Origin: Pristiophorus japonicus
Lineage: Eukaryota
Reading direction: 5' to 3'
NCBI RefSeq assembly: GCF_044704955.1
Contig: NW_027251843.1
Span: 930,001-994,000, forward strand
Length of the DNA: 64,000 nt
A program made the translations under genes and the position numbers. Positions within the stretch are counted from its first letter, which is position 1. The number at the start of each line of letters is the position of its first letter. Positions 13,001 to 57,403 of this stretch are shown piece by piece. A model generated the notes under the pieces. That model was not told the DNA's origin and did no database searches. It worked only from the letters and a program-made list of their open reading frames with translations.

Positions 13001-13002
13001 CC

Positions 13003-15691: not shown

Positions 15692-15859
15692 CTTCCCCCT
15701 TTAATATCTCTTGTTATAAACTCAGAGACATTACTCTAGGTGACTTCTTCTTCTTTCCCTTGAGCTCTTTTGGGTGTATTGCAGTCTTCAGTCAAATCTC
15801 CACATTACATACTTTTTACAACAAAACAATGTTTGGCCTTAATCCATCTGACTTCAGTT

Positions 15860-17010: not shown

Positions 17011-17232
17011 CCACCTCCTCTCGTACCCTTGGCTCGATTCGCTCCTATAAAGACAAAAATGAAAGAAATACTTTTGCTCTGTGGGGCCTCCCCCTCACAG
17101 GTCCTTCTTCAGTTATTCACAAATGTACATAACTCCTTTTTACAATCACTGCTTCCCTCTCCTTTTATCCCGATGCTTGGGCTTACAGAGGCTCGGGGGT
17201 GGAGATGGAGGAGGTGTCCAGGGCACCCTAGG

Positions 17233-22659: not shown

Positions 22660-22757
22660 TTCCAGTGCCTCTGGCTGAGAAATTCTCCCTGACTACCTTG
22701 GTGTCCCCTGAGACCACCTCGCAGTGACCTGCGGTTCCTGTTACTCTGGCTTCTCTC

Positions 22758-23539: not shown

Positions 23540-23544
23540 ATTCT

Positions 23545-31370: not shown

Positions 31371-31388
31371 CAGCCAGAGGCACTGGAA

Positions 31389-36854: not shown

Positions 36855-37076
36855 CCTAGGGTGCCCTGGACACCTCCTCCATCTCCACCCCCGAGCCTCT
36901 GTAAGCCCAAGCATTGGGATAAAAGGAGAGGGAAGCAGTGGTTGTAAAAAGGAGTTACGTACATTTGTGAATAACTGAAGGAGGACCTGTGAGGGGGAGG
37001 CCCCACAGAGCAAAGGTATTTCTTTAATTTTTGTCTTTATAGGAGCGAATCGAGCCAAGGGTACGAGAGGAGGTGG

Positions 37077-38228
37077 ACGTTGTGGATAGGCCTGTGGATG
37101 GCCATTATTATTAAAGGATTGGGAGATCGGGGAGACACCGAGACATTCCTTACACACGGGTGTATGGGAGGAACCGGCCCCACTGTAACTCAAGGGGGAG
37201 CCATACGGAGCAACAAGGGCACAAACACCGATGCTCACACTGGGAGCTGGCCAGGGTGGTTGGGGTCAAATTCGACCAAGTACTCCAGACAAACCGAGGG
37301 TAAACTTGGGGAGGTGTCAGTGTCCTGCCCCAGGCTAAACATCACGGCCAGGAATGTACGGGTGAGAGAGGGGAGACGAGTTTGTCTGGAATGTAAAGGG
37401 ATTACCCCCATGGGAGGGTGGTGGTGGTTACAGAAAACAGACAGGAGAAAAGTTAATGCATCCACAGAATGGGAGAAACTGGGTAATAACTCAAACAGGC
37501 GGAGCACAGGAACAAGAGAAGGGGTGAAATTGTGTTGGGAAAAGTGGTGGAAGGAGGAATAAGGGATTTATGTCTGTGTGGTTGGATCTAGCCAGAAATG
37601 CAGGGGAGGTGTGGGGATTGTTTTTAAACGACAATGACAGGATTTCGGGTCAGGAATGAATTGGACGCAGGGTTTTGATTCCTGTGTGACCTTGACCAAA
37701 GGCAGTAAATGTGACCAAACTGATCGCAAGCAGATTAAAACCTCTCCCGAAAATGCTGACAGATTCTTCCTTTTGTTTCAAACCCCAGGTAGAGGCACAG
37801 TTTGCACAAGAAAGGATAATTCCTATCTCAGACCACAAACATATCTATATTACAGTCAATGATACGTTACGAACCTCCAGGGATACATATCGCGTGTTGG
37901 ATACTATATCCCACTGTTCCTCGAACATTTGACTGAACTGTTAAAGAACATCGAGTTGTCCCACAAACATTATTACACGTCACACCAAAAGAACGAAAAA
38001 GTAAGGGAGGAAATTGAGGAAATGATTGCCCCTCCACAGTGGGATGTGGGACTCAATATTGAGATCCCATCCTGGGTTCAAATTGTATCACACTTGTTAG
38101 TAATTGTACAGTTGGTAATAGTGTTGTATCTATTCGTCTTGTCCTGTTAACTAAAGCAAAAGATGAGGGAAGGGAATCTTGAAGGGTTATTAAAATCAAC
38201 CAAGGCGCAAGTGTTTGTAAAAGTATAA
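37077..38228 (+). pseudogene. env: Env-position Ig-domain membrane protein (start ATG>ACG, internal stop at 37560)
   Basis: Paralog of 15860-17010; splice acceptor 'ttttgtctttatag' near 37042. Confidence 0.7.
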
Positions 38229-38470
38229 ACTGAAGTCAGATGGATTAAGGCCAAACATCGTTTTGTTGTAAAAAGTATGTAAATGGAGATTTGACTGAAG
38301 ACTGCAATACACCCAAAAGAGCTCAATGGAAAGACGTTTTGTTGTAAAAAGTATGTAAATGGAGATTTGACTGAAGACTGCAATACACCCAAAAGAGCTC
38401 AATGGAAAGAAGAAGAAGCCACCTGTAGTAATGTCTCTGAGTTTATAACAAGAGATATTAAAGGGGGAAG

Positions 38471-39288
38471 TGTAAGGGTTATATGTTTCATGATCGAGGT
38501 GCAGCAAGAGGCCATGGACTAAAATGGCTTAAAAGAAAACCTTTGGGACTGTAGGGAAGGAGAAAGAGCACCAGCCTGGGGCAGGTGGTGACTGATCACT
38601 GATTAATGCGTTTTCTGGGGTCAGGAGTGAGACCCGATTAACATCGAGACAAAGGGTTTGATACAATCAAGCAGAGGAGCCCATGGATTCATTGGCCGGA
38701 GGGGAAAACCAGTTTCCTCTGGAGACTCCCAAGTCTGCGAAAACCCAGGACAACAAAGGATCCCACAAGGCATGCATTCTTGGATAACGGGGCACAAAAG
38801 ATAAGGAGTTATCTTTTGCCCCATCAATTCCATGTGTGAATTGTGGCTGTCCGAACAGATCCAGACCCATCACCACAGCCATCGAGACTCATCCAGCTGC
38901 ATTAACTGAAAGGCAGCCCAGCAGGAGATGTGTATAATCGAATGGATATATCTGTAAGAGCTGAGAACAAAGGTTCAGAGAGAGGAAGAACAGGTCGAAG
39001 AAACATCTCAGACCAGCAGGTCAATGAACTACAGCCACGAAGCAGCAGCAGGGCCACAACACCTTCCCTCGCTCCACGAGCCGACAATGGACAACAGTAG
39101 CAACTGGCTGGATGGGCGATTGTATGTCTTCGGTCAATCTCTAAGAAGTCTTGTTCTGTAATGTTCAGTTGTTTTTTGTGCAACAAAATAACAGTTGGGT
39201 TTAAGCCTAAACTTTGCATTACGTGGAGTCCTTCCTGTAATTCCCGAGGTCTATGAATCAGAGGAGAGTGGAAAATTAACACCTTGCA
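38471..39288 (+). repeat. LTR type 2 (3' LTR of the inner element, right arm)
   Basis: PPT aaagggggaag immediately 5'; TG...CA termini; 818 bp. Confidence 0.85.
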
Positions 39289-39696
39289 GCACATGAGCTC
39301 ATGACCGCGAGGTAAACCGGGACTGGTTGGTCCAGAATCTGTTTGATGTTTTAAAACAGATTCACTGGCAGGCAGCCAGTAACCTGGGGAACCAGCACCG
39401 GGAAACATCGGTTGCTACTTGAGCCCCGGAGAAGCCACGAGTGGAAGGTGGGAGACCAGGTAATGTTCAGGAACTGTGCCCGAGTGGGGGCATTCGAGCC
39501 ACTGTACATGGGGCCTTATAACATCGTAGATAAGGCCAGCCCCATGGTATATGCAGTCAGACTCCCGAAACATACAAAATGCTACCATATCAACCAGTGC
39601 AAGTTGTTTAACCCCGAGGGGGGGAAGACAAAGGCAAAGAGAAACCAGGGCACAATAATGAGCCTGGTGGACGCGGGTCTTCCTCCCATGGTGTAG
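39289..39696 (+). pseudogene. Integrase C-terminal remnant of the outer element
   Basis: ORF 39412..39696 with a GPY motif. Confidence 0.85.
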
Positions 39697-40070
39697 GACG
39701 ATGCTGATGACCCAGATGGCAGGGCAGTAAGGAGAAACAGTCGGATACCACGGCCTAGGGCGCCGTGGACGCCTCCTTACTCACCAGCCGCGAGCCGCAA
39801 GAGGCCCCAACAGGAGAGATTTTAACCGGGGGCACTCGATAACGCGGAACGAACTGTATATATATGTAAATAACGAAAGCCCGACCTGTGGAGGGAAAAA
39901 GCGCTCAGAGAACGGTGGTGCTGTATCTGTTTGTCTTAATCAGGAAATCAGAAGAAACGGGAGCCTGGGTGTAATTGATCAGCTATGGACCCACAATGCA
40001 CCTCCCGCAGCAGAAGACGACGGAATTCGAGATATTTCTGGTTTTGGTGACAAAATATCATTAGGGGGAT

Positions 40071-41196
40071 TGTAGCACCAGCTTTCTGGCCATTTCTATC
40101 AACAATATTTTAATTCCATAAATCCAAATCCCCAAGAAAGAACTGTACTGTTGGCGAGCTTGTGGGGTGGCACTAAGCTGCATTCATATACAACCGGACA
40201 TTTCACACTGACAGGCTGGGTAACAGGGAACCCAGGCCCATTGATGTCATCACCATCTAAAGTGATTACTGGGAACAATACCCCGAGAGGTAACTCAGAG
40301 ACACTGTGCCTTCGCATTATTAAAGCACAGTCACCACTCAGTCCCAACCCAAACTGGTGCAAGGCAGGAAATGGCCGGCCCGTTGTCTTCCAGGAGATAA
40401 GCCGGTTAAGCAAGATCGGTTTGTGATCGAAACCCATTACCTGCTAATGGGGGCCATCAACTCAGGAAACGACAGACATCCAGTAATCAGCACCCATTGT
40501 CTCTCCAGATGCAAGGCCTGGGAGCGGGAAAATAAAACATCATTTTTCACAAAGATTTCAAAGGCTACGAGCCACTCCAGGCCACGGCGGGAAGGGGAGG
40601 AGGAGGGGTCCAGACAGATCACCGGAATCAATCCATCGGTCAGTATTGGCGGGAGGAAAAGTGATGGGTTTTGGGGATATAAGGAGCCACTTTGCAACAA
40701 ACTCCAGCTCAGGTGGAAGAAGCTCAGGAAAAAGCCCAGGAAAAAGCCCAGGAAAAGCTCCAGAAAAGCCCAGGAAAAAGCCCAGGAGCGAGACGTTCAG
40801 GAAGAAGCTGCAATCAAGACAACGGGCAATCAGGGTGAGCATATTGCCTGCGCCTACACATCCGCAACACCACTTAGCTGTGTGAGGGAGTGATTGTAAG
40901 TCCCAACCAAACCCAAGGGGTTTAGTGCTGGGCGGCGGGGGGGGGGTCCTGTGTTAGTTTATTTCACGGGACGGTCCTTTTATTAAGCCGTGGTAACTTA
41001 GCACGGCAGGGCTTATTGGACAAGCCAGGGATGTACTGTTTTGCACTGTTTATGAGTGGTGTTGTTAATCTTATTAAACACAATACGGTTGAACCCGAAA
41101 AACGTGTGTCTGAGTCTCATCTGTCCATATAATCCCTATCGTCCAGAACTTGTAGAAGGAGGTGCGTTTTTGGTACGGCTGAGAGAACCACCTACA
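40071..41196 (+). repeat. LTR type 3 (3' LTR of the outer element, right arm)
   Basis: PPT aggggga, then TGTAGC...CCTACA; TATA 'gatataag' near 40676; 12-bp GAAAAAGCCCAG repeats. Confidence 0.8.
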
Positions 41197-41199
41197 GGC

Positions 41200-41450
41200 A
41201 ACCCCTCAGTACTGCCCCTCCGACAGTGCAGCACTTCCTCAGTACTGCCTCTCTCACAGTGCAGCACTCCCTCAGTACTGTCTCTCTGATAATGCAGCAC
41301 TCCCTCAGTACTGCCCCTCTGACAGTGCAGCACTCCCCTCAGAACTGCCCCTCTGACAGTGCGGCACTCCCTCAGTACTGCTCCTGCGACAGTGCGGCAC
41401 TCCCTCAGTACTGCCCCTCTGACAGTGCAGCACTCCCTCAGGACTGCACA
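41200..41450 (-). repeat. 33-bp SINE-derived minisatellite (~7 units)
   Basis: Reverse complement of the unit at 12423-13000. Confidence 0.95.
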
Positions 41451-43478
41451 GTAATGTATGTCTTTATTTTGCACTCAGGTCCCTGGAGTGGGGCTTGAAC
41501 CCACGATACAACATTGCATCTCTGGATGCTGCACAGTCTGAGCTGTGAGTCATATCCCGACCTCAGTTGGAACAGCTAACTCAGAACAAACAATAACAGC
41601 AACTTTTATGCAGCACCTTTAACACAGTAAAACTCCCCGAGTGCTTCACAGGAGCATTGTTGTTATGTATTTAACCCCTTTTAACATTGTAACCTGCATC
41701 ACACCTGCCCACCAGAGGGCCTGCCTGCCCTGTTGGAGTCCCAAGGGATCCCAGCATCCCTTGGCAGTATAGTATATAAGCAGGCCACCCATGAGGTACC
41801 TGCACTCTGTAACTACAGTAAAGGAGCTAAGGTCACACTTGCTCATTACACACAGTAATCGGTCTGAGCATTTATTATGAGCATAACAATTGGTGACGAG
41901 ATAACGAACCGCGCGTAAATGCAAAGAACAGTTGGCATCCTGGAGAAGTTCTCGGAGGGGGATGATAGGGAGGACTATGTGGAGAGACTCGACCAATACT
42001 TCTTAGCCAACAAGCTGGAAGGGGACGAGAATGCAACCAAACGATGGGCGATCCTCCTAACCGTCTGTAGGGCCACTACCTATGGCCTCATGAAGAATAT
42101 CCTGGCCCCGGCTAAACCAACAGATAAATCCTATGAAGAACTGTGTACGCTGGTCCAGGAGCACCTAAATCCTAAGGAAAGCCTTTTGATGGTGAAATAT
42201 TGGTTATACACGTGTCAACGATCGGGGGACCAGGAAGTGGCGAGCTACGTCACCGAACTAAGGCACCTTGCAGAACATTGTGAGTTTGAGGCATTCCGAG
42301 AACAAATGCTCAGAGACTTTTTTGTACTGGGCATTGGACATGAGACAATCTTTCGCAAGCTTGTTGACTGTAGAAACAGCGAATCTGAATAAAGCCATAA
42401 CGATAGCCTAAGCATTTATGTCCACCAGCGGCAACACCAAGCAGATTTCGCAGAACAAAGAAGTTTTGGCCAGTACTGTGCATAAAGTAACGTCGGTTTT
42501 GAGCAGAAATGTACATGGCAGAATGTACACACCGGCTGCTGTGGCCTGACCTCAATTGACCCAGAATCCGTCATCATCTGTTAATACGAGGCAGTTAACA
42601 CCCTGTTGGTGCTGCGGAGGTGATCATCGGCCCCATCAATGCCGCTTTAAGCACTATGTATGCAATGGTTGCAGAACAATGGGACACCTCCAATGAATGT
42701 GCAGGCGAGCTGCAAACCCTGCAAACCACCACGTTGCAGAGGAAGATCGGTCCACAGTGGATCAGATGGAATTGAAAACTCATACTGAGGAGGCAGAGGT
42801 GTATGGGGTACACACGTTCACGACGCAATGCCCACCAATAATGTTGAAAGTTGAACTGAATGGTATTCCAGTGTCAATGGAGCGGTACACGGGAGCAAGT
42901 CAGTCCATAATGAGTAAAACAGCCTTCGACAGGCTGTGGGGGAAGAAGGCACCCAGATCTGTCTGCTCCACTGTGGACCGATCTTCCTCTGCAACGTGGT
43001 AATTTGCAGGGTTTGCAGGGTTTGTAGCTCACCTGCACATTCGTTGGAAGTGTCCCATTGTTCTGCAGCCATTGCACACAGGCCCAAGCTCAGCCCCATT
43101 CACACGAAGTTAAGGACTTATACAAGGGAACTAATCTCGGTAATTGGCAGTGCTGAAGTCAAAGTCTCCTATGATGGAGCAGTACACGAACTCCCGCTAT
43201 GGATTGTGCCATGGGATGGCCCCACGTTATTTGGCAGAAGCTGGCTGGGGAAAATCCGCTGGAACTGGGACAACATCCGAGCGCTTTCGTCAGTTGATGA
43301 CACCGCATGTACCCAGGTTCTAAGCAAGTTCTCATCGTTATTCGAGCCAGGCATTGGAAGTTTCTCGGGGACGCAAGTGCAGATCCATTTGGTTCCTGGT
43401 ACGCGACCGATCCACCACAAGGCTCGGGCGGTACCGTACATGAAGCATGAAAAAGTGGAAATCGAGCTGGACAGGCTG

Positions 43479-43954
43479 TGTCGAAGAAATTTTAGCTTAA
43501 ATTAACTCAGCGGAGACTTTCAGAGCCGTGCTTCGAGAGAAAGTTTATTTCTAACGAGATATCTCGGAGAGCCCGCTTAGTCCACACTAAGGCAGAGCTC
43601 TGACTTTTACAGGAAAACCCGCGCTATATTTATACAGTAAAAAGAGGAGTTTTATCTTCAAATTCCACACATTAACATTAATCATATTACTCCGAGAATA
43701 CAAAGGTCATCCCGGAAGGCACACATTATCTGTTCTTGCATAGTTTCTCCCTGTCTGTGTCAATAATCAGTTTCTCCCTGTCTGTGTCAATAATCAGTTT
43801 TAGGAGACTCATGCAGGGAACAGATAATCAGTTTTTGTTTTCTTAAGACAAAGAAGTTCGGGTGTTTTCTCTAGCTCCATTATTTCTACAATATCAGCAA
43901 GAAGTGATTTTAACCCTTCCCTTTACCATACTACAGAGATCGTTTTCTTCCACA
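43479..43954 (-). repeat. ERV 3' LTR
   Basis: TG..CA termini; minus-strand AATAAA at 43544-43549; PPT AAGGAGGGAG adjacent; 27-bp tandem duplication in U3. Confidence 0.97.
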
Positions 43955-44003
43955 ACTCCCTCCTTGTTGATCTTTATAACCGATCAACACAGTTTCTTTT
44001 TCT

Positions 44004-45491
44004 TTATTGAAAAGGGGGTTCATATCCTTCGGGGTAGGGTCGCATCTTGAGGCATTCTACTTCGTCATATTCATCTAATTTTTCTTCTATGCGGCTTAAC
44101 CTTCCTTTCACAAACATACTTTTCCCTTCTACTTGGGATACTAGGCCCATTACCTGGTTAATTAGCCTTTTTACTTTTATCCACATCCCACACATGATTA
44201 TTAGTAATATAAGCATAACCACACCTACGATTACTATGGGGTATATAGCAAGCTTCAGTACTGCTGAAGCTTTGGGGGACCATCTGGAAAACACATCCCA
44301 CCAGTGGTGTACTGTCAGGGAGGTGACTGCATTCGCGATTCTTACTAGTTGTCCCTTCTTGTAACTCATTTCTATTTTGAACTGGTGGATGTCTTGGCCC
44401 CTTTTGGACAGAGCCTCCTCTATTTGTTTGTCATTTTTTATCAAATTGTGCAATCTGGTCAAATTAATTACAGGGGGTAAAGGATCAATTTTGTGCACAG
44501 ACAGATATTTTACTACATTCTGCCACTGCCCAAAAGTATAAGTTCTTCTTTCTTCTGGATCATACAGGGTGTAGACTTCTCTCACACATGTATTAATGGG
44601 GGGTTTATACAGAATTCCGTCCAGGTAGACAGGTCTATTTCCCGTCAGACAGACCTCATTCTGTCCTACTTCAGAAATATCGGTGTCATTGGTCGGTTTT
44701 AGTTCCCATCTACATATTCCAGTGGGGTGCTGTAGAGAGCATGGTTCATGTATGGCAGTCTGATAGGGACACACCATTCCGAACGGCCACCTAGCACATC
44801 CCCTGTCGTGATGTGTTAGATTCTTTTCATCAACCCAGTCTCCTTTAAATTCTGGATACCAGAAGTTTCGTCCGAACAACTGGGGTATTATTTGGAACTG
44901 ACACCATATTTCTCCTTTTGTCTTATTTACTATTTCCATAGTGATGTTACATCCTTTTAAATCGCAACCAGTATATTTTTCTTGGGGTTTAATGGTTAAA
45001 TTTAGAAGTTTATCTTTCTGATTGATTTCCAGTAATCTCTCCCATGTGTTAGCATGGAAGGATAGTACTTTCCTTTCTAGCTCGGCTCTCAGTAACTGTC
45101 TGATCATCTCCCTGAACATGCAATGGGTGTACTTATTTACTTCCTTTTGTTCCTTCATTAGGTTTTCTATTTCCTTCTCTATCTTTTCATTCTGCCCCCA
45201 GGTCATTTTGTCTGTGATATAACCTGATACCTGCAATTGCTGTAATCCTTCATCCCAGGCATTTCTTATTTTTATGCCTTTCCCCACTCCACAAGCTTTG
45301 CACATTACTGTGAAGTTCCCTATTTTACAATTTTTTCCTTCTGGGCACACAAAGTTATCTTGCCGTTCTGACCTATCACTTCTTTCCCACTCCATATCTC
45401 CCTTCCATTCTTTTCCTTCTTCCTGTCTGACTCTTCCTACTGCTAAAATGATCAGAATGCCCAATGTCCGCTTACAGCTTTTCCGCCTCAT
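44004..45491 (-). CDS. env: Envelope glycoprotein (ERV-S/SnRV-type), 495 aa, no furin site or fusion peptide evident
   Basis: Signal-like LGILIILAVG; Cys-rich ectodomain; heptad repeat; HHWWDVFSRWSP membrane-proximal motif; TM IVIVGVVMLILLIIMCGMWI. Confidence 0.88.
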   Translation of the reverse strand: MRRKSCKRTLGILIILAVGRVRQEEGKEWKGDMEWERSDRSERQDNFVCPEGKNCKIGNFTVMCKACGVGKGIKIRNAWDEGLQQLQVSGYITDKMTWGQNEKIEKEIENLMKEQKEVNKYTHCMFREMIRQLLRAELERKVLSFHANTWERLLEINQKDKLLNLTIKPQEKYTGCDLKGCNITMEIVNKTKGEIWCQFQIIPQLFGRNFWYPEFKGDWVDEKNLTHHDRGCARWPFGMVCPYQTAIHEPCSLQHPTGICRWELKPTNDTDISEVGQNEVCLTGNRPVYLDGILYKPPINTCVREVYTLYDPEERRTYTFGQWQNVVKYLSVHKIDPLPPVINLTRLHNLIKNDKQIEEALSKRGQDIHQFKIEMSYKKGQLVRIANAVTSLTVHHWWDVFSRWSPKASAVLKLAIYPIVIVGVVMLILLIIMCGMWIKVKRLINQVMGLVSQVEGKSMFVKGRLSRIEEKLDEYDEVECLKMRPYPEGYEPPFQ

Positions 45492-45618
45492 CTTCCCTTT
45501 TTTCTCTGTTTCTATAACACTCCTGTATTAATTTGTTAAAATAACAGCACGCAAGCACGAGGGTAACAGTGATCCAAATAATAAAGGCCCAAATTGGCAT
45601 ACAAGCAAGTTCTGACAT
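45472..45618 (-). CDS. 48-aa single-pass membrane accessory protein between pol and env (below the ORF-track cutoff)
   Basis: Manual translation MSELACMPIWAFIIWITVTLVLACCYFNKLIQECYRNREKREDEAEKL*; first ATG after a candidate branch point/acceptor; overlaps the env start by 20 nt. Confidence 0.65.
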   Translation of the reverse strand: MSELACMPIWAFIIWITVTLVLACCYFNKLIQECYRNREKREDEAEKL

Positions 45619-45751
45619 CCGGCCTGAACTCTGGGTGTCTTATTTTAGGTTCAATGTACCCTTGCGAAGGGTCACAAAAGAGGGGTCAGTACAGTTCTTT
45701 GGTGAGAAGATGGCCGTCTTCTCGGGTAGGTAACCGTAGTACGTCCTAGTT

Positions 45752-48700
45752 CTATGTCTCTTCTTTTGGCTGTGATTTGTTGGGGAAGTAATATTTACAA
45801 CGGGTTGCATGCACCCAGTTTGGATGCTTTTCCAATTTCAATGCCGTTCTCGTCGTGAGAATTATCTGATACGGTCCTTTCCACCTAGGAGAAAAAGATT
45901 CTTTGTTTAATGTTTTCACTAACACTTGGTCTCCTGGCTTGAATGGGTGCATATTTCCTTCCGACAGGGGCACCTGTGTCTGCTTTATCTGTTCATGCAG
46001 ACTTCTTGCTATTTCACACATGGCCTGAGCATACTTTAGTGATTTTTCATCATTCCAAATTAATGCTACCTTTTCCGCTACCAGTGGTGGTTTTACTCCG
46101 GTAGGCATTGGCCTTCCCAATAAGGCTTCATGCGGTGTCAAACCAGTGTTTCGGTTTTTCTGGTTTCTTAATGTATATAGTACCAACGGTAGGGCGTCTG
46201 GCCATTTTAATCCTGTCTCCTTACATACCTTGGTAAGGGTAGATTTTATTATCCCATTTACTCTCTCTACTATTCCTGAAGACTGAGGTTGATATGGTAT
46301 ATGTAACTTCCACTGGAAACCTAACGCTTCTGCAAGATTTTGCACTATTTTTCCGGTGAAGTGTGTTCCCCTGTCACTGTTGATTCCCATAGGTATCCCA
46401 TATCTTGGTACTATTTCTTTAAATAGAATCTTTACTACTGTTCGGGCATCGTCTCTCCTAGTGGCGTACGCTTCTACCCACCTTGTGAACATGTCTACTA
46501 TGACTAATAGGTACTTAAAACCTGATACTGGAGGCATGTGGACAAAATCAATTTGCAAATTTTCAAAGGGCATACTTGGCTGGGGTAGATGATCATATTC
46601 AGCAGGTGTTTTACCTCTGTTATTTTGTTGACAAATTTGGCATGTTCTAGCAACTTTTTCAATTACCACTGTTATTCCTGGTGCATACCACTGTGCATTA
46701 ATAGCATGCATCATCCCTCCTTTGCCCATGTGAGCCTGACCATGTGCTAGGCGAGACAGGGGCAAGAATAGAGATCTAGGGCAAACAGTTCGCCCATCAG
46801 GGTGATACCAAATGTCATTTTTTAGAAAGCAACCCTGGTTTTCCCAAGTCCTTCTTTCTTGCATAGTAACTTGTTGTTGGGCTGTTTTAAGTAGTTGGAC
46901 GTCAAGTGTCTGTGGAAGGGTGACTGAGACTGCTTGAAGGCAGTCTGTCTGTGCCGAAGCGACCTGTTTGGCTGCTTCATCAGCCCTCCTATTTCCCACT
47001 GACACTTCATCCTCACCGATTGTGTGTGCTGCACATTTGATAACGGCTACCTTATTTGGCAACTGAATGGCGTCTAATAGATTAAGCACCAATTGAGAGT
47101 GCTTAATATGCTTTCCACCAGAGGTGATAAAGCCTCTGTTTTTCCATAGTTGTCCAAAATCATGGACCACACCGAATGCATATCTAGAATCAGTATAGAT
47201 ATTGGTAGTTTGATCTTTTGCTATTATACAAGCTCCGGTGAGGGCAAATAATTCAGCAGCCTGAGCCGAGGTTCCAGGAGGCAGGGCAAATGCTTCAACA
47301 GTTTCATGGGGGCTTACAATTGCATAGCCTGACAAAAGCAAATTATCTGATGGTCTGTACGATGACCCATCCGTATAGAGAATGAGATCAGGATTGTCCA
47401 TGGGCTCTGTGAGCAAATCTGGTCTCGGCAAGGTGGCTAATTCCACTGTTAACAGACAGTCATGCTGGTCTGGATCCTCTATTTCTCTAGTGGGAACAAA
47501 AGTGGCGGGGTTTACTATCGGCGCGCGTTGAAAGGTGTAGTTAGAGTGTGATAGCAGCAGTACTTCATAACCTGTTCTTCTAGATGCTGTGAAATGCTGG
47601 GTGGCGGCAGAGTTCAATAGTAATAGCACTGCATGAGCGGTAACGACAGTACACGGATAGTCCAAAACAATAGGTACTGACTTCTCCACCATGACCGCAG
47701 TAGCGGCTACAGCGCGTAGACATGCTGGCATTCCCCTCACTACTGGAGGAAGTAAAACCGAATAATAGGCCACTGGTCTATTTCCCCCACCATGTTCTTG
47801 GGTTAATACCGCCGTTGCAAATCCTTCTTTCTCATTCACATACATCTGAAAGGGTTTAGAATAGTTTGGAAGTCCCAATGCCGGAGCGTTAGTGATAGCT
47901 TTCTTTAACTGCTCAAACACCTCCTCCTTCTCTGGGGTCCACTCTACCTTGGGTGGGGCATCATTTAGGGCAGCTGATCTTAGGACCGCATCCCATTCTC
48001 GATAATCAGGGATCCACTGTCTGCAGTACCCCACCATCCCCAAAAAAGACAAAATATCCTTTTTTGTCTTTGGTATGGGGATACTCTGAATAGTCTGAAT
48101 TCTTTCGGGTCCTAGCTGCCTCTGCCCTTGAGATATGTGGAAACCCAGGTACTGGACTTGAGTCTGGCAAAATTGTAGCTTTTGTAATGATACTCGGTGC
48201 CCTCTTTCACATAGGTGTTGTAATAATTTCAGGGAATCTTGCATGCATCTGTATCCGTGGCTGGAAGCCACAAGCAAATCATCCGCATATTGTAACAGTA
48301 CAGACTGGTCTGATAATAAACAGTCTTCTAGGTCTCTTTTTACTGCTGCTGCATATACTGCGGGGCTTTCGGTGTACCCTTGGGGCAACCGGGTCCATGT
48401 GTACTGCTGTTTCTTGTAGGTGAAAGCAAACAGATACTGACTCTCTTGATTTACTGGGATGGAGAAAAAGGCTGAGCACAAATCTATCACAGTAAAGACA
48501 GTTGCTGTTGGTGGGATGGCAGATAGCACAATGTTGGTGTCCGGTACCACAGGGGTGATAGGGACTACTATCTTATTAATAGCTCTTAGATCTTGCACAA
48601 ATCTCCACTCATTCGGCCTATTAACCTTTGGTATGGGCAGTATCGGAGTGTTACACGGGCTCTGTGTCTTTTCTAGAACTCCTTGTTCCAACAATGCAGA

Positions 48701-49885
48701 AATGACTGGCTCTATCCCATCTTCTGCCTCTGGAGGCAGTGTGTACTGCTTAATGCTTGGTAACACGGCGTTCTTTATCAGTCGTACCCGGTGGGGTGCT
48801 GCAGAATGTACCTTCCCAACATGATTCTTATGTTTTGCCCAAAGTTCAGAAGACACTTGATTCAATGCCATTGGCAGCTTAGGGCTCGGTTGTCCAGGGG
48901 GTTGCTGTTTTTTAAAGGTGGAGGCATAACTTTTACCTTTCCACTGGAGAATTCCCCTGGAACGGGTGATAAATTCTATCTGGACATTCTGTAATTCTAT
49001 TACTGCCCAAGGTCTATAGCCTTGATGCTGCTTCTCCTTTTCTATTTCTACAATCATCGGACCCATATCTTTGGGTTTCGCCGGCGGTTTTACAGCCAAT
49101 GTCAGATGGGGTGTTGAGTTCTCTTCTTTAAACCGCTTCTGCTGTAAGGGTGTCAAATCCATGGCTACCCCTAATCCTTCTGGTCCGAAATAAATGCGGG
49201 GTGTAGCTTCTATTATCTCTTCTTTATCTAGAAAGGGCTGTATTAAGCACTGGTAAGTTTCAGCTTTTTGTCGAGTGTACCAGGCTGTGCAGTGAAGCTG
49301 AACCGCCTCAAAGCTTGTTAAGATGATATACATCAGTTCGTCCGCATTAGAGTCAAATTTAGCTTTTAAGTTTTTTACAATATCCTGTATCAGGGGGGAA
49401 TAGAAGTTGTCACTCAATTGCCAACAATAGAGGGCAGCCTTTTCTTTGTTATCTTCCCCCTCCTCCCTTCTAATCCCATCAAAGAACTGATGGATTTTAT
49501 TTTGAGGGAGCTCCATGAACATCCCTTCCTTTGTGCAATATATTGTGGCTCCTAGTTTGCACAAAGTCTGTCTTCCTAATAAGGGGAGAGGGGCTGTTTG
49601 AGAGACTATCAAAGTCTCATTATCTACTTGTTGTCCTTCAATTGTCAATTTAGTAGGTTCGGGCAAAAATTCTTTCAGGGGGATACCGGCCACTCCCATG
49701 CTCAAGACGGTAGTGTTGCTTACAGGTAATCCCACAGAGGGTGGTACAGAAGACATAGTAGCACCGGTATCCACCAGAAACTTTACATCAGTGTTTCCCA
49801 CTTTTATTACTGCCAAAGGATTCTCTTCTATGTCTGTAGATAAGCGGAGGGTTGCCGCCTGTACCACTACACCTCCGGGGCATCC
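45752..49885 (-). CDS. pol: Pol (PR - 2H phosphoesterase - RT - tether - RNase H - IN), expressed by readthrough
   Basis: Uninterrupted >1370-aa frame with FLVDTGA, LPQG, YADD, YTDGS, HHCC, DDE and GPY motifs; in frame with the gag TAG. Confidence 0.97.
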   Translation of the reverse strand, partial: GCPGGVVVQAATLRLSTDIEENPLAVIKVGNTDVKFLVDTGATMSSVPPSVGLPVSNTTVLSMGVAGIPLKEFLPEPTKLTIEGQQVDNETLIVSQTAPLPLLGRQTLCKLGATIYCTKEGMFMELPQNKIHQFFDGIRREEGEDNKEKAALYCWQLSDNFYSPLIQDIVKNLKAKFDSNADELMYIILTSFEAVQLHCTAWYTRQKAETYQCLIQPFLDKEEIIEATPRIYFGPEGLGVAMDLTPLQQKRFKEENSTPHLTLAVKPPAKPKDMGPMIVEIEKEKQHQGYRPWAVIELQNVQIEFITRSRGILQWKGKSYASTFKKQQPPGQPSPKLPMALNQVSSELWAKHKNHVGKVHSAAPHRVRLIKNAVLPSIKQYTLPPEAEDGIEPVISALLEQGVLEKTQSPCNTPILPIPKVNRPNEWRFVQDLRAINKIVVPITPVVPDTNIVLSAIPPTATVFTVIDLCSAFFSIPVNQESQYLFAFTYKKQQYTWTRLPQGYTESPAVYAAAVKRDLEDCLLSDQSVLLQYADDLLVASSHGYRCMQDSLKLLQHLCERGHRVSLQKLQFCQTQVQYLGFHISQGQRQLGPERIQTIQSIPIPKTKKDILSFLGMVGYCRQWIPDYREWDAVLRSAALNDAPPKVEWTPEKEEVFEQLKKAITNAPALGLPNYSKPFQMYVNEKEGFATAVLTQEHGGGNRPVAYYSVLLPPVVRGMPACLRAVAATAVMVEKSVPIVLDYPCTVVTAHAVLLLLNSAATQHFTASRRTGYEVLLLSHSNYTFQRAPIVNPATFVPTREIEDPDQHDCLLTVELATLPRPDLLTEPMDNPDLILYTDGSSYRPSDNLLLSGYAIVSPHETVEAFALPPGTSAQAAELFALTGACIIAKDQTTNIYTDSRYAFGVVHDFGQLWKNRGFITSGGKHIKHSQLVLNLLDAIQLPNKVAVIKCAAHTIGEDEVSVGNRRADEAAKQVASAQTDCLQAVSVTLPQTLDVQLLKTAQQQVTMQERRTWENQGCFLKNDIWYHPDGRTVCPRSLFLPLSRLAHGQAHMGKGGMMHAINAQWYAPGITVVIEKVARTCQICQQNNRGKTPAEYDHLPQPSMPFENLQIDFVHMPPVSGFKYLLVIVDMFTRWVEAYATRRDDARTVVKILFKEIVPRYGIPMGINSDRGTHFTGKIVQNLAEALGFQWKLHIPYQPQSSGIVERVNGIIKSTLTKVCKETGLKWPDALPLVLYTLRNQKNRNTGLTPHEALLGRPMPTGVKPPLVAEKVALIWNDEKSLKYAQAMCEIARSLHEQIKQTQVPLSEGNMHPFKPGDQVLVKTLNKESFSPRWKGPYQIILTTRTALKLEKHPNWVHATRCKYYFPNKSQPKEET

Positions 49886-51586
49886 CTATGCTGATTGGTG
49901 CGGGTTGGGGTTAGAAAAGGAAAATTGAGGGGCCAGTGGAGGTGTAGGTTCGGGGAAATTCCCCTGTAACCCTCCAAACTGTTTAGGTGGGCACCTACAA
50001 TCTCGAGCCCAGTGCCCCTTCCTTCCGCAATTTCTACACTCATCTTGCGAGCGATCTCGCTGGGACCACTGTCCTCTTCCTCCTCCCCTCCTTCCCCCAA
50101 ACCCTCCTCTATTCTGTGCTTGTCCTCTTCCTTTCTGCTGATAGTATTGTCCTGCTGTTTTGGCTTTGTTATCTTTGTAGGTAAATAGTCCCTCCCTGTC
50201 CATGTTTGCCAGTACTGTAATTGTTTCCTTCCAGTTTTTTCCTTGCCAGTCCAAGACCTTGATCTTGTACGTTCTGGCATGCTGTGGTAACATACAATTC
50301 AACAAAGTCTGCACTGCTAAAAGTTCGTTTTGATCCAAGGGTATTCCTGCATGCTCGTCCCAGCTATTTTTCCACCTGCCTGCGAAATCTATCATTGATT
50401 CTTCCGCTTTCTGCAGACAGCGGTTGACTTCCCCAATGTCCCCATGTTTTTTAGCTCCCTTCAGAATTGCATTTTTTCCCCTATGTTGCAGCCAGTGAGT
50501 TAATGACTCATTGCCGTTGTCCAGCAAGGTATCATCAACTCTCCAATCCTCCCTTTCTCCTGGCGGGATCGAGAACATATCTTTTACTCCCTGCCAGGAG
50601 GATCCGTAGGCTGCTTGTAATAATAATTTAATATCCCCCGGTAGCGGATTGTAAATCGTACATGTCTGCTCAAGCCAGTTGTGAAATGCTATAGGTTTCT
50701 TTACTGGGTTTGGGGCGGCAGAGATCATATCTCTGGCCTCTCCCGGGGACCAGGGTTTTAAAACCACTGTGGTTCCTATCATTACCCTGGGATTTTGGAG
50801 GAGGAGGGTAGAGTCGGCTTCTGCCTGGGCTGGGGTTGTTTGCGACCTTAGTCGAGAACTCATCCCAGATCTCTGATTGACTTCCCCTCCCTCTGCTGCT
50901 TCAGCCCCTGCTCCTAATACCTCCGGATTTCCTCCATCGGCTCCTCCATTAGGTGGTGGGGCCGGGAGGACAGCTAGTTCTCTCTGGGCTTGATCTCTAT
51001 GGGCAATAACCATTTCTATAATTTCCTGCCAGCTATTTCGCTTTGGGGGTTCTATACGAGGATAAAGTCCCACAGTGGGTGCTGAGGGGATAGGGAGGTT
51101 TGGAGGGCTATAAGAGGGAGGTTTTTCATTTTCCCCCTTTTCTTTTCCTCCTGATTTATTCTCCGAATTTTTATTTTTCGGAGGCTGATGTCTCTTAGCA
51201 ACCTCAATCCATTTATTAAAACAATTTTCCATGTAATCCTTGTCCCAAGTAGGGTCTCCCCCTCCTTCCTTGGTTATTTTTCTCCATTCCTCAATTAAAG
51301 ATAGTTTAAAACTTCCTCCATATGGCCAATCCCCATCAGACCAACCGTACAAATCGCTACTAAACGTTACCGTGTATCGGTCATCTCCTGTTTCTTTAAT
51401 TACAGTGTCCGCCGGCGAGCCGGGCGGCACAATTGGATCTCCTACCTTCTCTCGTTGCTTTACTACCTTACGGATTCTCTTTTCGGTTTTAGAATGTAAT
51501 TTCATTCCTTTGGTCAAGGGGTCGTCTTTCTTTCCTTTTCTAGGAGCTGGGCGCGAGCGCCCTGCTCGACTAGAGCTGTTTCCCAT
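49886..51586 (-). CDS. gag: Gag (566 aa)
   Basis: MGNSSS myristoylation start at 51586; PPSY, PSAP and LYPRI late-domain motifs; CCHC knuckle CRNCGRKGHWARDC. Confidence 0.95.
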   Translation of the reverse strand: MGNSSSRAGRSRPAPRKGKKDDPLTKGMKLHSKTEKRIRKVVKQREKVGDPIVPPGSPADTVIKETGDDRYTVTFSSDLYGWSDGDWPYGGSFKLSLIEEWRKITKEGGGDPTWDKDYMENCFNKWIEVAKRHQPPKNKNSENKSGGKEKGENEKPPSYSPPNLPIPSAPTVGLYPRIEPPKRNSWQEIIEMVIAHRDQAQRELAVLPAPPPNGGADGGNPEVLGAGAEAAEGGEVNQRSGMSSRLRSQTTPAQAEADSTLLLQNPRVMIGTTVVLKPWSPGEARDMISAAPNPVKKPIAFHNWLEQTCTIYNPLPGDIKLLLQAAYGSSWQGVKDMFSIPPGEREDWRVDDTLLDNGNESLTHWLQHRGKNAILKGAKKHGDIGEVNRCLQKAEESMIDFAGRWKNSWDEHAGIPLDQNELLAVQTLLNCMLPQHARTYKIKVLDWQGKNWKETITVLANMDREGLFTYKDNKAKTAGQYYQQKGRGQAQNRGGFGGRRGGGRGQWSQRDRSQDECRNCGRKGHWARDCRCPPKQFGGLQGNFPEPTPPLAPQFSFSNPNPHQSA

Positions 51587-51907
51587 TCTTCCGGGTGCGA
51601 TGTCTCGCGATTTTTCTGAAATGAGAATTAAGGACACTCCTACAAAATATACAGTAATATTTTACAAAGCGCTCACCGGTGTTCTCTTTTCCGCTCAGCT
51701 CGGGGTCTCCTTATTGCTTTCTTGTTATTTTAGCTTCTTTGTGGTAGCTACCTTAAATGCCTCACCCTTCAAGGGATCTTGGTGGCTCGTCCCCCTTTTA
51801 GCTAGGACAGCCTTGGTACCTTCCCCCTTTCAGCTAGGAAGGTCCTTAAAATTCCTCTTTTCTCTTTTCAAAGTTAAATTTGGTTCTTTTGGATCTCGTT
51901 TTTAGAG

Positions 51908-51926
51908 ATCCTGCCTGACTACGCCA
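51908..51926 (-). promoter_or_regulatory. Primer-binding site, tRNA-Ser type
   Basis: TGGCGTAGTCAGGCAGGAT vs the recalled tRNA-Ser(AGA) complement TGGCGTAGTCGGCAGGAT (one extra A). Confidence 0.8.
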
Positions 51927-51931
51927 GAATC

Positions 51932-52407
51932 TGTCGAAGAAATTTTAGCTTAAATTAACTCAGCGGAGACTTTCAGAGCCGTGCTTCGAGAGAAAGTTTA
52001 TTTCTAACGAGATATCTCGGAGAGCCCGCTTAGTCCACACTAAGGCAGAACTCTGACTTTTACAGGAAAACCCGCGCTATATTTATACAGTAAAAAGAGG
52101 AGTTTTATCTTCAAATTCCACACATTAACATTAATCATATTACTCCGAGAATACAAAGGTCATCCCGGAAGGCACACATTATCTGTTCTTGCATAGTTTC
52201 TCCCTGTCTGTGTCAATAATCAGTTTCTCCCTGTCTGTGTCAATAATCAGTTTTAGGAGACTCATGCAGGGAACAGATAATCAGTTTTTGTTTTCTTAAG
52301 ACAAAGAAGTTTGGGTGTTTTCTCTAGCTCCATTATTTCTACAATATCAGCAAGAAGTGATTTTAACCCTTCCCTTTACCATACTACAGAGATCCTTTTC
52401 TTCCACA
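51932..52407 (-). repeat. ERV 5' LTR
   Basis: 473/476 identical to 43479-43954; minus-strand TATAAATA at 52080-52087. Confidence 0.97.
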
Positions 52408-55283
52408 GGCTGTAACGTGAGGGCATCATCGCGCCGGTGGAATTCAACACTGGGCCGGCCTGATTGTTCCCATACTCAAGGAGGACAGTACAGTTAGAAT
52501 TTGCGGTGACTATAAAGTAACAATTAACCGTTTTTCGCTACCCAAGGCAGACGCCCTATTTGCGACCTTGCTGGAGGGAAGACGTTCACAAGCTGGACCT
52601 GACCTCGGCCTACATGGCGCAGGAGCTGGAGGAGTCTTCAAAAGGCCCCACCTGCATCAACTCGCACAAAGGTCTATTCATTTAGAACCGGTGCCCGTTC
52701 GGGATTCGGTCGGCTGCAGCAATCTTCCAGCAAAACATGGAAAGCCTGCTAAAGTCGGTTCCTTGTACACTGGTCTTCCAGGACAACATATTGGTTACAG
52801 GTTGGGACACTATGGAGCACTATGGATGAGGTTCTTAGTCGGTTGGATCGCGTGGGGCTCAGGTTGAAACGCTCAAAGTGTGTATTCCTGGCACAGAAGG
52901 TTGAATTATTAGGAAGAAGGATCGCAGCAGATGGCATCAGACCGACCGACGCCAAGACGGAGGCCATCAAGAACACGCTGTGACCACAGAACTGCCGTCG
53001 TTTCTGGGACTCCTGAACTACTTCGGTAATTTCCGACCTGGGTTAAGCACCCTACTAGAACCCTTGCATGTGCTACTGCGCAGGGGAGACGACTGGGTAT
53101 GGGGGAATTCACAAGAGGCTGATTTTAAGAAAGCCAGAAATTTACTGTGTTCTAACAAACTGCTTGTCCTGTATAACCCATGTAAACGACTCGTGTTAGC
53201 TTGCGATGCGTCGTCATACAAGTTCGGGTGTGTTTTACAACAGGCTAATGAATTGGGGATTTTGCAACCGGTTGCATATCCATCTAGGAGTTTGTCCAAG
53301 GCCGAAAGGGCCTACAGCATGATTGAAAAAGAGACTCTGGCTTGTGTTTACATTGTAAAAAAAATGCACCAGTACTTGCTTGGCCTGACGTTCGAACTTG
53401 AAACAGATCACAAGCCGCTCATTTCGCTGTTCTCAGAGAGCAAACGATAAATACCAATGCCTCTGCCTGCATCCAAAGATGGGCGCTCATGCTGTTGGCA
53501 TGCAACTGTGTAATTCGCCACAGACTGGGCACAGAGAACTGCACAGATGCTCTCAGTCGGTTACCGTTGCCCACCACTGGGGTGGAAATGGCACAGCCAG
53601 CGGACTTGCTTATGGTCATGGAGGCATTTTAGAATGAGAAATCCCCCATTACGGCCCGCCAGATCAGGACATAAGAACATAAGAACATAAGAACATAAGA
53701 ATTAGGAACAGGAGTAGGTCATCTAGCCCCTCGAGCCTGCTCCGCCATTCGACAAGATCATGACTGATCTGGCCGTGGACTCAGCTCCACTTACCCGCCC
53801 GCTCCCCATAACCCTTAATTCCCTTATTGGTTAAAAATCTATCTATCTGTGACTTGAATACATTCAATGAGCGAGCCTCAACTGCTTCCTTGGGCAGAGA
53901 ATTCCACAGATTCACAACCCTCTGGGAGAAGAAATTCCTTCTCAACTCGGTTTTAAATTGGCCCGTATTTTGAGGCTGTGCCCCCTAGTTCTCGTCTCCC
54001 TGACCAGTGGAAACAACCTCTCTGCCTCTATCTTGTCTATCCCTTTCATTCTTTTAAATGTTTCTATAAGATCACCCCTCATCCTTCTGAACTCCAACGA
54101 GTAAAGACCCAGTCTACTCAATCTATCATCATAAGGTAACCCCATCACCTCTGGAATCAGCCTAGTGAATCGTCTCTGTACACCCTCCAAAGCTAGTATA
54201 TCCTTCCTTAAGTAAGGTGACCAAAACTGCACGCAGTACTCCAGGTGCGGTCTCACCAATACCCTGTACAGTTGCAGCAGGACCTCGCTGCTTTTGTACT
54301 CCATCCCTCTCGCAATGAAGGCCAACATTCCATTCGCCTTCCTGATTACCTGTTGCACCTGGGCCAATTGTGGAGCAGTGGAGGCGTGGCCTAAACAGTT
54401 GGAGCTGTGAGCAGTGAGAGAAGGAGCTGCTGCTTTTGCTCCTGGCTGGGCCTGTGAATCAGCCCAGGAACAGAAGGAAGGAAGGAAGGGGCTTCACCAC
54501 CAACTTTCACCCAGAGGGAGAGGAGGAAAAAGCAGAAAACTTTAACAACTTCACCATTTCTACAAAGAGTTGGAGAGAGGGGGAAAGACCAACAACAACA
54601 TCCAGTGTGGAAGGAGGGAGACTCTACCATTCTACAGGTGGGTGTATTGGTGCAGTCCCTAAAAGACTTTGCTGTATCGGTGGGGGGAGGAAAGAAGACC
54701 AGTCGGGGGCCGGAACATCGCGGGGGGGGTGTGTGTGGAAGTGTGTGTGGGGGCCTTGCTTACAACTGGGCCCCACACACCTTTGAAGCACCCCTCCACC
54801 ATTGCCAAGCCTGGGATAGCTGGAGCTACCAGGCTAAGAAACAATTAATCCACCCTAATTAACATCGTTGGGAGTGTGTGCCTGTGTGGCTCCAGCTGCA
54901 CCAGGTGAAGACATCTTCTCCCCTCACCCGAAGACCACCCCAAGGACTATTTTTTGTTTGCCATCTGGGGATTGCACCCACCCACAGCTGCGAGGGGAGA
55001 CCTGCCCTCGCAGTTTCCCCCCTTCCCACCCCCCTCTCTCTTTCTCTGTTACTCTCTGTCTCTCCCCTCTCTCTCTGAGAGCCCTTTCCTCCCAAATTGA
55101 TTGGAAAAATATAAAACAATTAAGACAACTGAGCAGAGGGAGCAAGGCCCCTCCCCAATTGTCAACTAGGGGAGAGGTGTGCCTCGTTAAGAGCTCCTCT
55201 GCTCAGTCTATTAAACGAGGCCATTTAAAGACCATTAAGGCTTGTGACTTTGGGGTAGGTGTAGCCCTTAAAGGGACCCCGTG

Positions 55284-57246
55284 ATGGCGACCCCATCTAC
55301 GCCGGTGGCAGGGCCAGCTAGGACTTATGCGCAGGCGGCATCCACATCCACGGCACCTCCTGCGCCACCTGCTGCCCTGCCACCATTCAGACTTATAACT
55401 AAGAAATACGGGGTCAAGAGCTACACTCACCCCACAATGAGCATTGAGGAGTGCGTGCAGGCGATGGCTGGGGTAGTCGGCCCCTCGGCCATTGTCGCAG
55501 CCTCCAAGATGTCTGGGAAGGCCGTGTTCTTCCTGGGGTCGGAGCGGGTGGTGTCCCTGGCCATTGAAAAGGGGCTCACGGTGGGCAGGGCGTTCCTGCC
55601 GGTGGACCCTCTCGAGGCCACCGCGCAGAGGGTCATTCTATCAAACGTCCCGCCCTTTGTTCCTGCTGAGCTCCTCCTCCCTCACCTACACCAACTGGGG
55701 GAGGTAAGGTCGGGGATCAACCCCATACCGCTTGGCCTCAGGGAGAACAGCCTGCGCCATGTGTTCTCCTTCCGCCGCCAGCTCTTTGTCCGGCTGGCGC
55801 GGGAAGAGACGACAGAGGGTAGTTTTAATGTGGTGCACAAGGGGACTGGCTACCGCATCTTTTGGACGTCGGACGGCGTGCGGTGCCATGCCTGCAGGGA
55901 GGTGGGGCACGTTCGCAAGAATTGCCCCGCCTCCAAAGCCGCCAAATCACCGAGGGCGGCCAAGGCTGGCGCCGCCGCCACCCCTCCCCCTAGTAGCGTC
56001 CGCGTGCCGGGAGCTGTGGGTGCGCGGGCATCGTCGGGGGCCTTTGTTTTCACGGCCTCCGGCGGGGGGGAGGGAGAGCGTCCGGCCGGAAAGAAGGCGC
56101 AGAAGAAGGCGAAACACCTAGAGGCGGGTCCCCTTAGTGCGCCAGACAAGCTGTTCACCGCGCTCGGCCCAACCCCGTCACCGGCGAGCGCGGGGTGCCC
56201 TGAGCCCGTGCCCGAGCCCTTGACTAATACCGCAGAGGGGTTCGGGCGCGGGCAAGATAAGAAAAAGGGGGGAATGGAGCGGGAGGCCTCGGCAGAAACG
56301 GGTGTCTCCCTGTCTCCGTGCCCCCCCAGGAAAAAAAGGAGGCGCCGCTCCAATGAGGCGGGGGGGGGGAACAACATCCCTCCGCGGAGGAGTCGGTGCC
56401 CGCAGCGTCCCCCACCGGCGCCCCCAAACTGCGCCGTAGGCACAAGGAATCTATCCCCGGGGAGGGTGAAGCAGTCGAGGCAGCCCAGCCGCTGCCTCCC
56501 GGGGATGGCGTGAAAGATCTGCCTGTCGTGGGGGGCGTGGGGCCAGCGGAAGAATGCATTGCCGCCGGGTCGAGTAGCCCGGGGACTGAGGCGGGCGGGG
56601 CCGAAAAGGCCGAACCTGAGCCCGCCCAGCCAATATCCAACTTCCCCCGGGATTTGCTCGACTCGGCAGAAATACAAAGTATTAACACTTTTAATGAATC
56701 TGTACACGCTGGGCCGGGGGTGCTGGTGGGGAGGGGGAGGAACACCCACCCTCGCCCCCTGCTTTGGAGCTGGAGCGCTTGGAGGGCCTGGGGATTTCCT
56801 GTGGCCGGGTCTCTCCTTGTTCCCCGGTTCCTGGGGCGGAGGAGGAACCCCTTCCGCTGTCGCTTCCCGACCCAGCACCAATTCTAAAAGAGCCCAGTGA
56901 GGACTCCTCTGCCGACGATCCTGGGGGTGGGATCGGGGCGGAGCCAGGACCGGATGGAGCGGCCGGGCCGTTTGCCGTACCTCGTGCGGTCGACGGGCCG
57001 GCTGCTAGCGGCGACCTCCCGGAGGGGGACAGGGACTCAGTGGAGGACACGGGTGAAGATCTCGAGTCCATCGCCAGTGAGGCGGTGGATCTGCTCTCGG
57101 CCGCTGCTGAGTCCCCCCTCATTCCCATAGAGGATCTCCGGGACTTTTTGGTCGAGAGCCAGGGTCGCCGCAACCGAACCCATCTGGCCCGGGAAAGATG
57201 GTCCGAGCCGGGGCTGCTCATCGCTTCCGTCCGCGTCGCCGCTTAA
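55284..57246 (+). pseudogene. Tx1 ORF1 (zinc knuckle), frameshifted in homopolymer runs
   Basis: AIVAASKMSGKAVFFL, VILSNVPPFVP and CHACREVGHVRKNC; continues in shifted frames. Confidence 0.85.
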
Positions 57247-57403
57247 ACCATGGCCGCGGGCGGGCCCTTATCAAGGGCGCAAGGCCTTGAGCTGCGACGG
57301 CTCAAAAAGTTCCTCGCTGGGCTGCTGAGGGAGTGGAGGTCAACAAAAGACTCCACTCCCCCCCCCACAATAGGTTAGGTAGAGGTTGCACTATGCTCTA
57401 GTC

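Follow-up and report, generated by a model that had tools for sequence, protein, structure and literature searches.

A retroviral provirus of 8,929 nt lies on the minus strand, at positions 52407-43479, of a 64-kb window of the genome of the sawshark Pristiophorus japonicus (contig NW_027251843.1, positions 930,001 to 994,000; "the window" denotes this whole stretch, to which all coordinates refer). The best explanation of its sequence is probably that it belongs to a class I, epsilon-like lineage that was paired with an envelope gene (env) resembling the fusion protein (F) of paramyxoviruses, and that this lineage is now losing env. The motifs of the window copy suggest that the particle-making, reverse-transcription and integration machinery has been retained. 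A reading made from the sequence only had described the element as a very young, frame-intact shark endogenous retrovirus (ERV) of class III, of the ERV-S/snakehead retrovirus (SnRV) type. Its outline was found again, with an 8.9-kb length, a perfect 5-bp target-site duplication, a polypurine tract and long terminal repeats (LTRs) differing at 3 of 476 nt. The shark attribution also holds, the closest named proteins being those of P. japonicus itself (Env 99% over 284 aa, reverse transcriptase (RT) 95%, Pol 93.6% over 760 aa).

Both frames that would supply the retained machinery are open, as the sequence-only reading had stated. Gag (566 aa; 49886..51586, minus strand) ends at a TAG codon, past which pol (1377 aa; 45752..49885, minus strand) continues in the same frame, presumably by read-through. 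Gag begins with Met-Gly, has a Ser at position 6 and contains PPSY and PSAP motifs, features that point to myristoylation and late-domain roles, along with one CCHC zinc knuckle (Pfam E=6e-6). No Gag homologue was found among 8000 candidates at E<=0.001. Pol is ordered as protease, 2H domain, RT (with a YADD motif), tether, RNase H and integrase, the last with HHCC and DD35E motifs and a GPY/F-type C-terminal domain (PF18697, E=4.9e-15; WKGPY). The set of catalytic motifs in the protease, RT, RNase H and integrase is complete. The 2H domain, between protease and RT (48989..49435, minus strand), is a CNPase-like phosphoesterase domain with both HxT motifs: all ten Foldseek matches of its predicted model with E<=0.001 are CNPase (TM-score about 0.5), and a protease-RT insert with two HxT motifs is common to 22 pol matches. 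CNPase/2H domains are reported in fish epsilon-like ERVs and in walleye dermal sarcoma virus (WDSV) (PMC4977317, PMC9503650). A cyclic 2',3'-phosphate, or some related nucleotide, would be the likely substrate for hydrolysis by the modelled domain.

Several comparisons place the provirus in class I. Pol scores 495 bits against the murine leukaemia virus (MLV) RT-RNase H profile versus 198 against that of foamy virus. A scan of viral contigs with an alignment (A5) as query gave 71 pattern matches, reduced to 14 retroviral loci; the same scan with the single window RT as query found no relatives. Two loci serve as landmarks: L013 (10,688 nt, with an Arg-type primer-binding site and a 1134-codon env frame), which we take to be SnRV-like, and L012 (10,305 nt), presumably the swim bladder sarcoma virus of salmon (SSSV). 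In RT-RNase H the provirus is 41-44% identical to ten gamma-like loci, 40.4% and 37.6% to the fish/frog-type loci L001 and L012, and 28.9% to L013. A careful tree of 20 rows was built from 12 of the 120 listed pol matches, 6 of the 14 loci, the window RT and, as outgroup, the RT of a second, decayed pol in the window. The window RT forms a clade with sequences from mackerel (P0008), newt (P0018) and toad (P0049) and with P0012 (support 100/98), and it attaches to the L012 group with a support of 88/90 in the absence of WDSV and walleye epidermal hyperplasia virus (WEHV). Together with the gamma references these make up an 18-row class I clade (100/99), with L013 outside. A grouping of the window RT with L013 is rejected by the approximately unbiased (AU) test (p=0.00079), and a 47-row quick tree agrees; in the 20-row tree L013, its sole SnRV-like row, and the outgroup are long branches. 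A hagfish (Myxine glutinosa) pol, P0026, is likewise placed within class I and shows the long spacer between protease and RT that typifies a 2H domain, in contrast to the report of only clade Huo in jawless fish (PMC6001957).

Other traits agree with this placement. Gag and pol in one frame with an amber codon between them, and the GPY/F-type integrase C-terminal domain, are class I traits, and a CNPase-like 2H domain between protease and RT is a trait of the fish epsilon-like ERVs (clade Mu). WDSV and WEHV carry cyclin-like accessory genes before gag and after env. No frames of this kind were found here: there is no ATG from the primer-binding site to the gag start, and only about 50 nt separate the env stop from the 3' LTR. 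Some class I elements also make a 5-bp duplication, which is therefore not diagnostic of class III. Primer-binding-site use is an unstable class marker, and the Gag of HERV-S/L is reportedly without zinc fingers (PMC4724089). As the Gag of SnRV has one zinc finger (PMC2717909), the single knuckle found here excludes ERV-S/L only. Env has no tblastn match to L013 at E<=0.05 and no profile match. The ERV-S/SnRV label is thus unsupported, given the RT placement, the AU test, the CNPase-like domain, the unstable primer marker and the zinc knuckle, along with the low identity to L013 and the absence of an Env match. By its sequence, the provirus is class I (gamma/epsilon-class) and probably epsilon-like. 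Nor is the RT sister to all other retroviruses, as in lokiretroviruses; it is nested in class I, in a tree without a lokiretrovirus reference. One echo of the SnRV/ERV-S idea persists, in that the Env family includes ORF3 of chicken Ovex1, an element whose pol is near SnRV and class III (PMC2717909).

The env gene (495 aa, no stops; 44004..45491, minus strand) encodes a signal peptide, a short N-terminal remnant, an F1-like body (heptad repeat HR1, beta domains, heptad repeat HR2), a transmembrane segment and a tail. Its model matches measles F (E=3e-8) and foamy Env (1e-5), as well as the F proteins of human metapneumovirus and respiratory syncytial virus (RSV), and F-fold matches recur in BFVD. 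The fold alignments begin at model residues 60-68, paired with RSV F 151-158 and measles F 141, and the model has the F1-like topology of a long HR1, beta domains, HR2 and transmembrane segment. Env is accordingly predicted to have the fold of paramyxovirus and pneumovirus F and of foamy Env. Searches by sequence give it no known family: neither the window Env nor 20 of the 21 Env matches tested belong to a real Pfam family, PF00523 matches neither it nor 21 relatives, and the only match of the Env profile among PDB sequences (E=0.13) is a designed transmembrane helix. The remaining Env match, P0138, is a repetitive false match and was excluded from the alignments. The gamma-type traits, namely the immunosuppressive domain (ISD), CX6CC and PF00429, are all absent from the window Env.

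Hosts of the Env family include sharks, bichir, pipefish, frogs, a caecilian, a turtle, owls, galliform birds (as Ovex1 ORF3), koala and marmoset. Ovex1 ORF3 (LOC422926) shows 22% identity over 225 aa around the membrane-proximal region (pairwise E=2e-13). A protein labelled Bacteroidales (P0221) falls in the koala Env cluster, the most likely cause being contamination of a metagenome bin by host sequence. The WEHV-1 Env gives a weak fold match (BFVD rank 36, E=0.042, prob 0.72), a hint that Env of exogenous epsilonretroviruses may be F-type. An ESM Atlas search with the horn-shark relative P0123 returned, as leads only, a single chordate cluster (874 aa, at 0.76) and a viral cluster with a TM-score of 0.42. 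Among pol relatives with env residues, the nearest is mackerel P0008 (pol about 60%), which has PF00429 and an ISD motif, and it is likely that the F-type env was joined to this pol lineage by recombination. A tentative extension, slightly less likely than not, is that Env represents an unnamed, vertebrate-wide F-type retroviral family, unseen by Pfam, whose members have been exchanged between pol genes of class I and of class III-like type.

If this were true, F-type fusogens would be a regular envelope of orthoretrovirus-type genomes and not a foamy or lokiretroviral speciality; Ovex1 ORF3, for long unexplained, would turn out to have an F fold, and the shark family would have been caught shedding an F-type envelope in several steps. 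Orthoretroviral Env has been put in a separate subclass from foamy Env and F (PMC11468914), and if the fold and the mosaic hold, that divide is not clean. Intact vertebrate reading frames, including an ovary-expressed bird gene kept for >100 My and those of koala and marmoset, would also gain a predicted structure and a testable function.

The env frame is open, but the gene is not whole, and its earlier description as uninterrupted fails on this point. An in-frame break at about residues 67-69 (45287..45293, minus strand) marks the absence of ~190 residues found in relatives. Residues 1-72 align to residues 22-99 of P0123, and residues 69-351 to 285-563. Against a profile of the Env family (49 members, window included), the window Env matches only positions 5-40 and 196-580, leaving 41-195 unmatched, and two proteins of the same species, P0001 and P0002, match it from residue 69 on and differ upstream. 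In 13 of the 18 relatives whose length is 500-900 aa, a Gly-rich fusion peptide follows a basic (furin) site; the window Env has neither, nor does it show a hydrophobic peak between the signal peptide and the transmembrane segment at the stricter cut-off. With no cleavage site or fusion peptide, the provirus is likely unable to enter cells on its own. For ERV scans generally, an open env frame need not mean a whole env.

Contigs assembled from sequencing runs bear on the break as well. Those of three of the four runs (X4, X6 and X7), from other copies, depart from the window at 45275, in support of it. Env-internal joints listed at 44261-45238 (all four runs), 44105-45281 (X4) and 45132-45438 (X7) hint at deletions in other copies. 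The provirus family is multi-copy: in X1, contigs that match gag perfectly over 139-143 nt reach depths of 503-606, versus 36-70 for rare joints, although depth is not copy number. The X1 contigs were covered to 72%, and the joints are among those listed.

Several points weigh against an epsilon-like lineage that is shedding an F-type env. The trees do not include WDSV, WEHV, HERV-S or ERV-L. The Env model has a predicted TM-score (pTM) of 0.39, its VIA Z scores are 6-7.7 with high root-mean-square deviation, and non-viral helical proteins score alike; an ESM feature search with the window Env returned rhabdovirus glycoprotein clusters at a low recognition score, which were not accepted. The case for an env swap consists of a single spliced gene model (P0008) and one further ISD match among the 120 pol proteins. 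Among the listed contigs none spans the env break of this copy with 31 letters to either side, so the break is known from the window alone. The sides of the env-internal joints are 23-28 letters long at 90% likeness, which falls short of the trust line, and with sides so short the joints are hints. Finally, neutral drift over the LTR age would leave gag-pol open 11-39% of the time, so open frames are weak evidence of recent activity.

The last point bears on the chief rival, which is unlikely though by no means negligible: the window copy may be a dead-end passenger of a family spread by reinfection from env-complete members. The env segment would have been lost in one reverse-transcription or post-insertion event, with gag-pol not yet decayed in a slow-mutating genome. 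Sister copies do retain the region upstream of residue 69, and the in-frame outcome of a deletion is a 1-in-3 chance. When the window was compared with contigs (18 hand-picked of 40 listed rows, with 473 further rows), replacements accounted for 6 of 12 and 1 of 6 positions, which are few and selected; the 6 of 12, from positions at which all X1 contigs differ from the window, are indistinguishable from a neutral 70% (p=0.2), in keeping with a passenger. However, at least three other env-internal joints are listed, two of them at depths of 909 (X1) and 294 (X4) versus 36-70 for rare joints in X1. These depths suggest amplified env-deleted forms, weakly, given the short sides and given that depth is not copy number.

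There is little probability that the shortened Env has been kept for a non-fusion role, such as interference with the entry or the trimers of related viruses, or that the gap is an assembly error. Signal peptide, F1 body, transmembrane segment and tail are still in one frame, the splice signals are intact and a spliced form is present in one run. However, several different env deletions seem to occur in the family, and the stretches on the two sides of the gap both align well to relatives, which is what a real deletion would give. A class III virus of the ERV-S/SnRV-like type that is wholly intact, perhaps infectious and mobile now is barely credible: the 5-bp duplication, the likely Ser primer, the 3/476 LTR mismatches and the Env family shared with Ovex1 ORF3 speak for it, but the RT placement and AU test, the zinc knuckle (reportedly absent from HERV-S/L Gag, PMC4724089), the lack of an Env match to L013, the missing cleavage site and fusion peptide, and an LTR age that shark rates put in the millions of years all speak against it.

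That age qualifies the description of the element as very young and currently mobile. The LTRs differ at 43597/52050, 43859/52312 and 43942/52395; identical LTRs and insertion polymorphism would be expected of a currently invading element. Their divergence is d = 3/476 = 0.0063 (Poisson 95% 0.0013-0.018). The rate assumed in PMC4422223, 2.2e-10 per year, gives about 14 My (95% 3-42 My), and that of 7e-10 per generation, from PMC10587355, gives 4.5 million generations (0.9-13); a mammalian rate would give 1.4 My. A lower age is to be expected because two of the three mismatches fall at CpG sites. Two dated elephant-shark ERVs have LTR divergences of 0.024 and 0.033 (PMC4422223), 4-5 times that of the provirus. 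The provirus is thus young for a shark ERV, but at shark rates it is about 14 My old, which does not favour current mobility. Near-identical LTRs in sharks may be millions of years old, a second trap for ERV scans.

The env messenger of this family appears to be made by a single splice. The donor (51677..51678, minus strand; exon ends at 51678) has a GT consensus, and the acceptor (45885..45886, minus strand; exon starts at 45885) a pyrimidine tract and AG. One X4 contig skips exactly 5792 nt with GT..AG ends on the minus strand (depth 82.7, short side 38 letters). As the run type is unrecorded and the contig comes from a related copy, this joint reflects splice use in the family, past or present, and not expression of the window locus. 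The acceptor is followed by three AUGs in weak context, after which comes the env AUG, with an A at position -3. The second weak AUG opens a 48-codon frame (45472..45618, minus strand) that overlaps the env start and encodes one predicted membrane helix and a charged tail. Shuffles yielded a similar frame in 1 of 5000 and 0 of 5000 cases, with thresholds taken from this frame itself. It is the best candidate for the accessory gene that the sequence-only reading had named without coordinates, and a candidate Vpu- or SH-like peptide by analogy of layout only. Three other frames tried as accessory genes have no Pfam match and were rejected: one of 137 aa within gag, one of 56 aa across the end of pol and an antisense one of 222 codons.

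If the epsilon-like lineage is indeed dispensing with its env, its cycle may be pictured as follows. The LTR would drive a full-length RNA, from which Gag would be made from the first AUG and Gag-Pol via read-through of the amber codon; RT would be primed by a Ser tRNA, and integrase would leave the 5-bp duplication. The RNA that the single splice from 51678 to 45885 would produce may serve to make the 48-aa membrane peptide and, through leaky scanning past the three weak AUGs, the shortened Env. In the absence of a fusion-competent Env, spread would likely proceed by replication inside germ cells or with the help of an Env that sister copies provide. In mammalian ERVs, env loss is said to favour intracellular amplification.

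The 5' LTR (51932..52407) and the 3' LTR (43479..43954) are both of 476 nt, lie on the minus strand and are bounded by TG...CA. On the minus strand, the 5' LTR contains a 27-nt tandem repeat (52195-52253), a TATA-like box starting at 52087 and an AATAAA starting at 52002, the last two with promoter and poly(A)-signal roles suggested by position. The primer-binding site (51908..51926, minus strand) begins with TGG, 5 nt inside the 5' LTR, and is presumably that of tRNA-Ser with one extra base; the window contains no tRNA genes. A polypurine tract (43956..43965, minus strand) precedes the 3' LTR. The target-site duplication (43474..43478 and 52408..52412, the same 5-mer) lies within a decayed LTR-retrotransposon pol on the plus strand, presumably Ty3/Gypsy. 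Its left part (42918..43478) is in a frame that continues across the target site, and its right part (52413..53450) holds RT/RNase H remnants with stops and frameshifts. Copies of this host retrotransposon without the provirus are present in X1 contigs. To the left of the provirus, within the host element, inverted repeat arms at 42657-42766 and 42962-43080 (71 nt at 92%, 57 nt at 95%) resemble a local inversion-duplication.

Elsewhere in the window, a large inverted duplication (12214-23541 and 31283-41658; 96.3% across 7,058 nt and 92.6% across 3,137 nt) is matched by a GC-skew reversal near 26-28 kb. At its outer ends, a 33-nt minisatellite occurs in opposite orientations (12425-13001 and 41203-41447). 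Inside it lies the second, decayed retrovirus-like pol (20923-18000, minus strand, and 33146-36088, plus strand), with protease, RT (YVDD) and integrase motifs and RT scores of 153 (MLV), 131 (Ty3) and 127 bits (foamy). Its RT lies outside class I when serving as outgroup, it has no match to the F-type Env profile, and it is possibly a basal (loki- or spuma-like) element. A LINE-like element (55272-60767, plus strand) has two frames, one of 413 codons in which a weak zinc knuckle lies and one of 798 codons for an RT.

Among known systems, SnRV shares amber read-through and one zinc finger with the provirus. With ERV-S, in which a Ser primer is also typical, it has the 5-bp duplication in common. 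Both (clade Huo) differ from the provirus, which is 29% identical to L013 in RT-RNase H, shows no Env similarity to it and has no large 3' accessory region. Ovex1 is alike in its single splice to env and its lack of gamma-type motifs; unlike the provirus, it is single-copy and LTR-less, has been conserved for >100 My, and has inactive enzymes and an ORF3 of 873 aa (PMC2717909). Foamy Env and paramyxovirus and pneumovirus F (PMC11468914) share the predicted F1/transmembrane-subunit topology, but the window Env occurs in an orthoretrovirus-type genome and is mostly missing its N-terminal subunit and fusion peptide. The Env of lokiretroviruses (PMC7947760), compared by description, also has a signal peptide, coiled coil, transmembrane segment and F-like structure, with full-length relatives of the window Env adding the basic site and fusion peptide; unlike lokiretroviruses, the provirus has an RT nested in class I, no PF00523 match and no smc gene. 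Elephant-shark CmiERV lineages II and III are likewise chondrichthyan epsilon-related ERVs, set apart, by the description in PMC4422223, by an LTR divergence of 0.024-0.033 versus 0.006 in the window. A further comparison is with the fish epsilon-like class I ERVs (clade Mu; the zebrafish ERV (ZFERV)/SSSV group). Outside the sawshark no pol comes closer than about 60% identity, and the window Env lacks ISD and CX6CC, whereas L012 Env has CX6CC and P0008 an ISD. The provirus resembles these ERVs probably in its RT clade, and also in having gag-TAG-pol within a single frame, a lone zinc knuckle, an MLV-type integrase C-terminal domain, a single env splice and the CNPase-like 2H domain between protease and RT, for which L012 gives a weak match at the same place.

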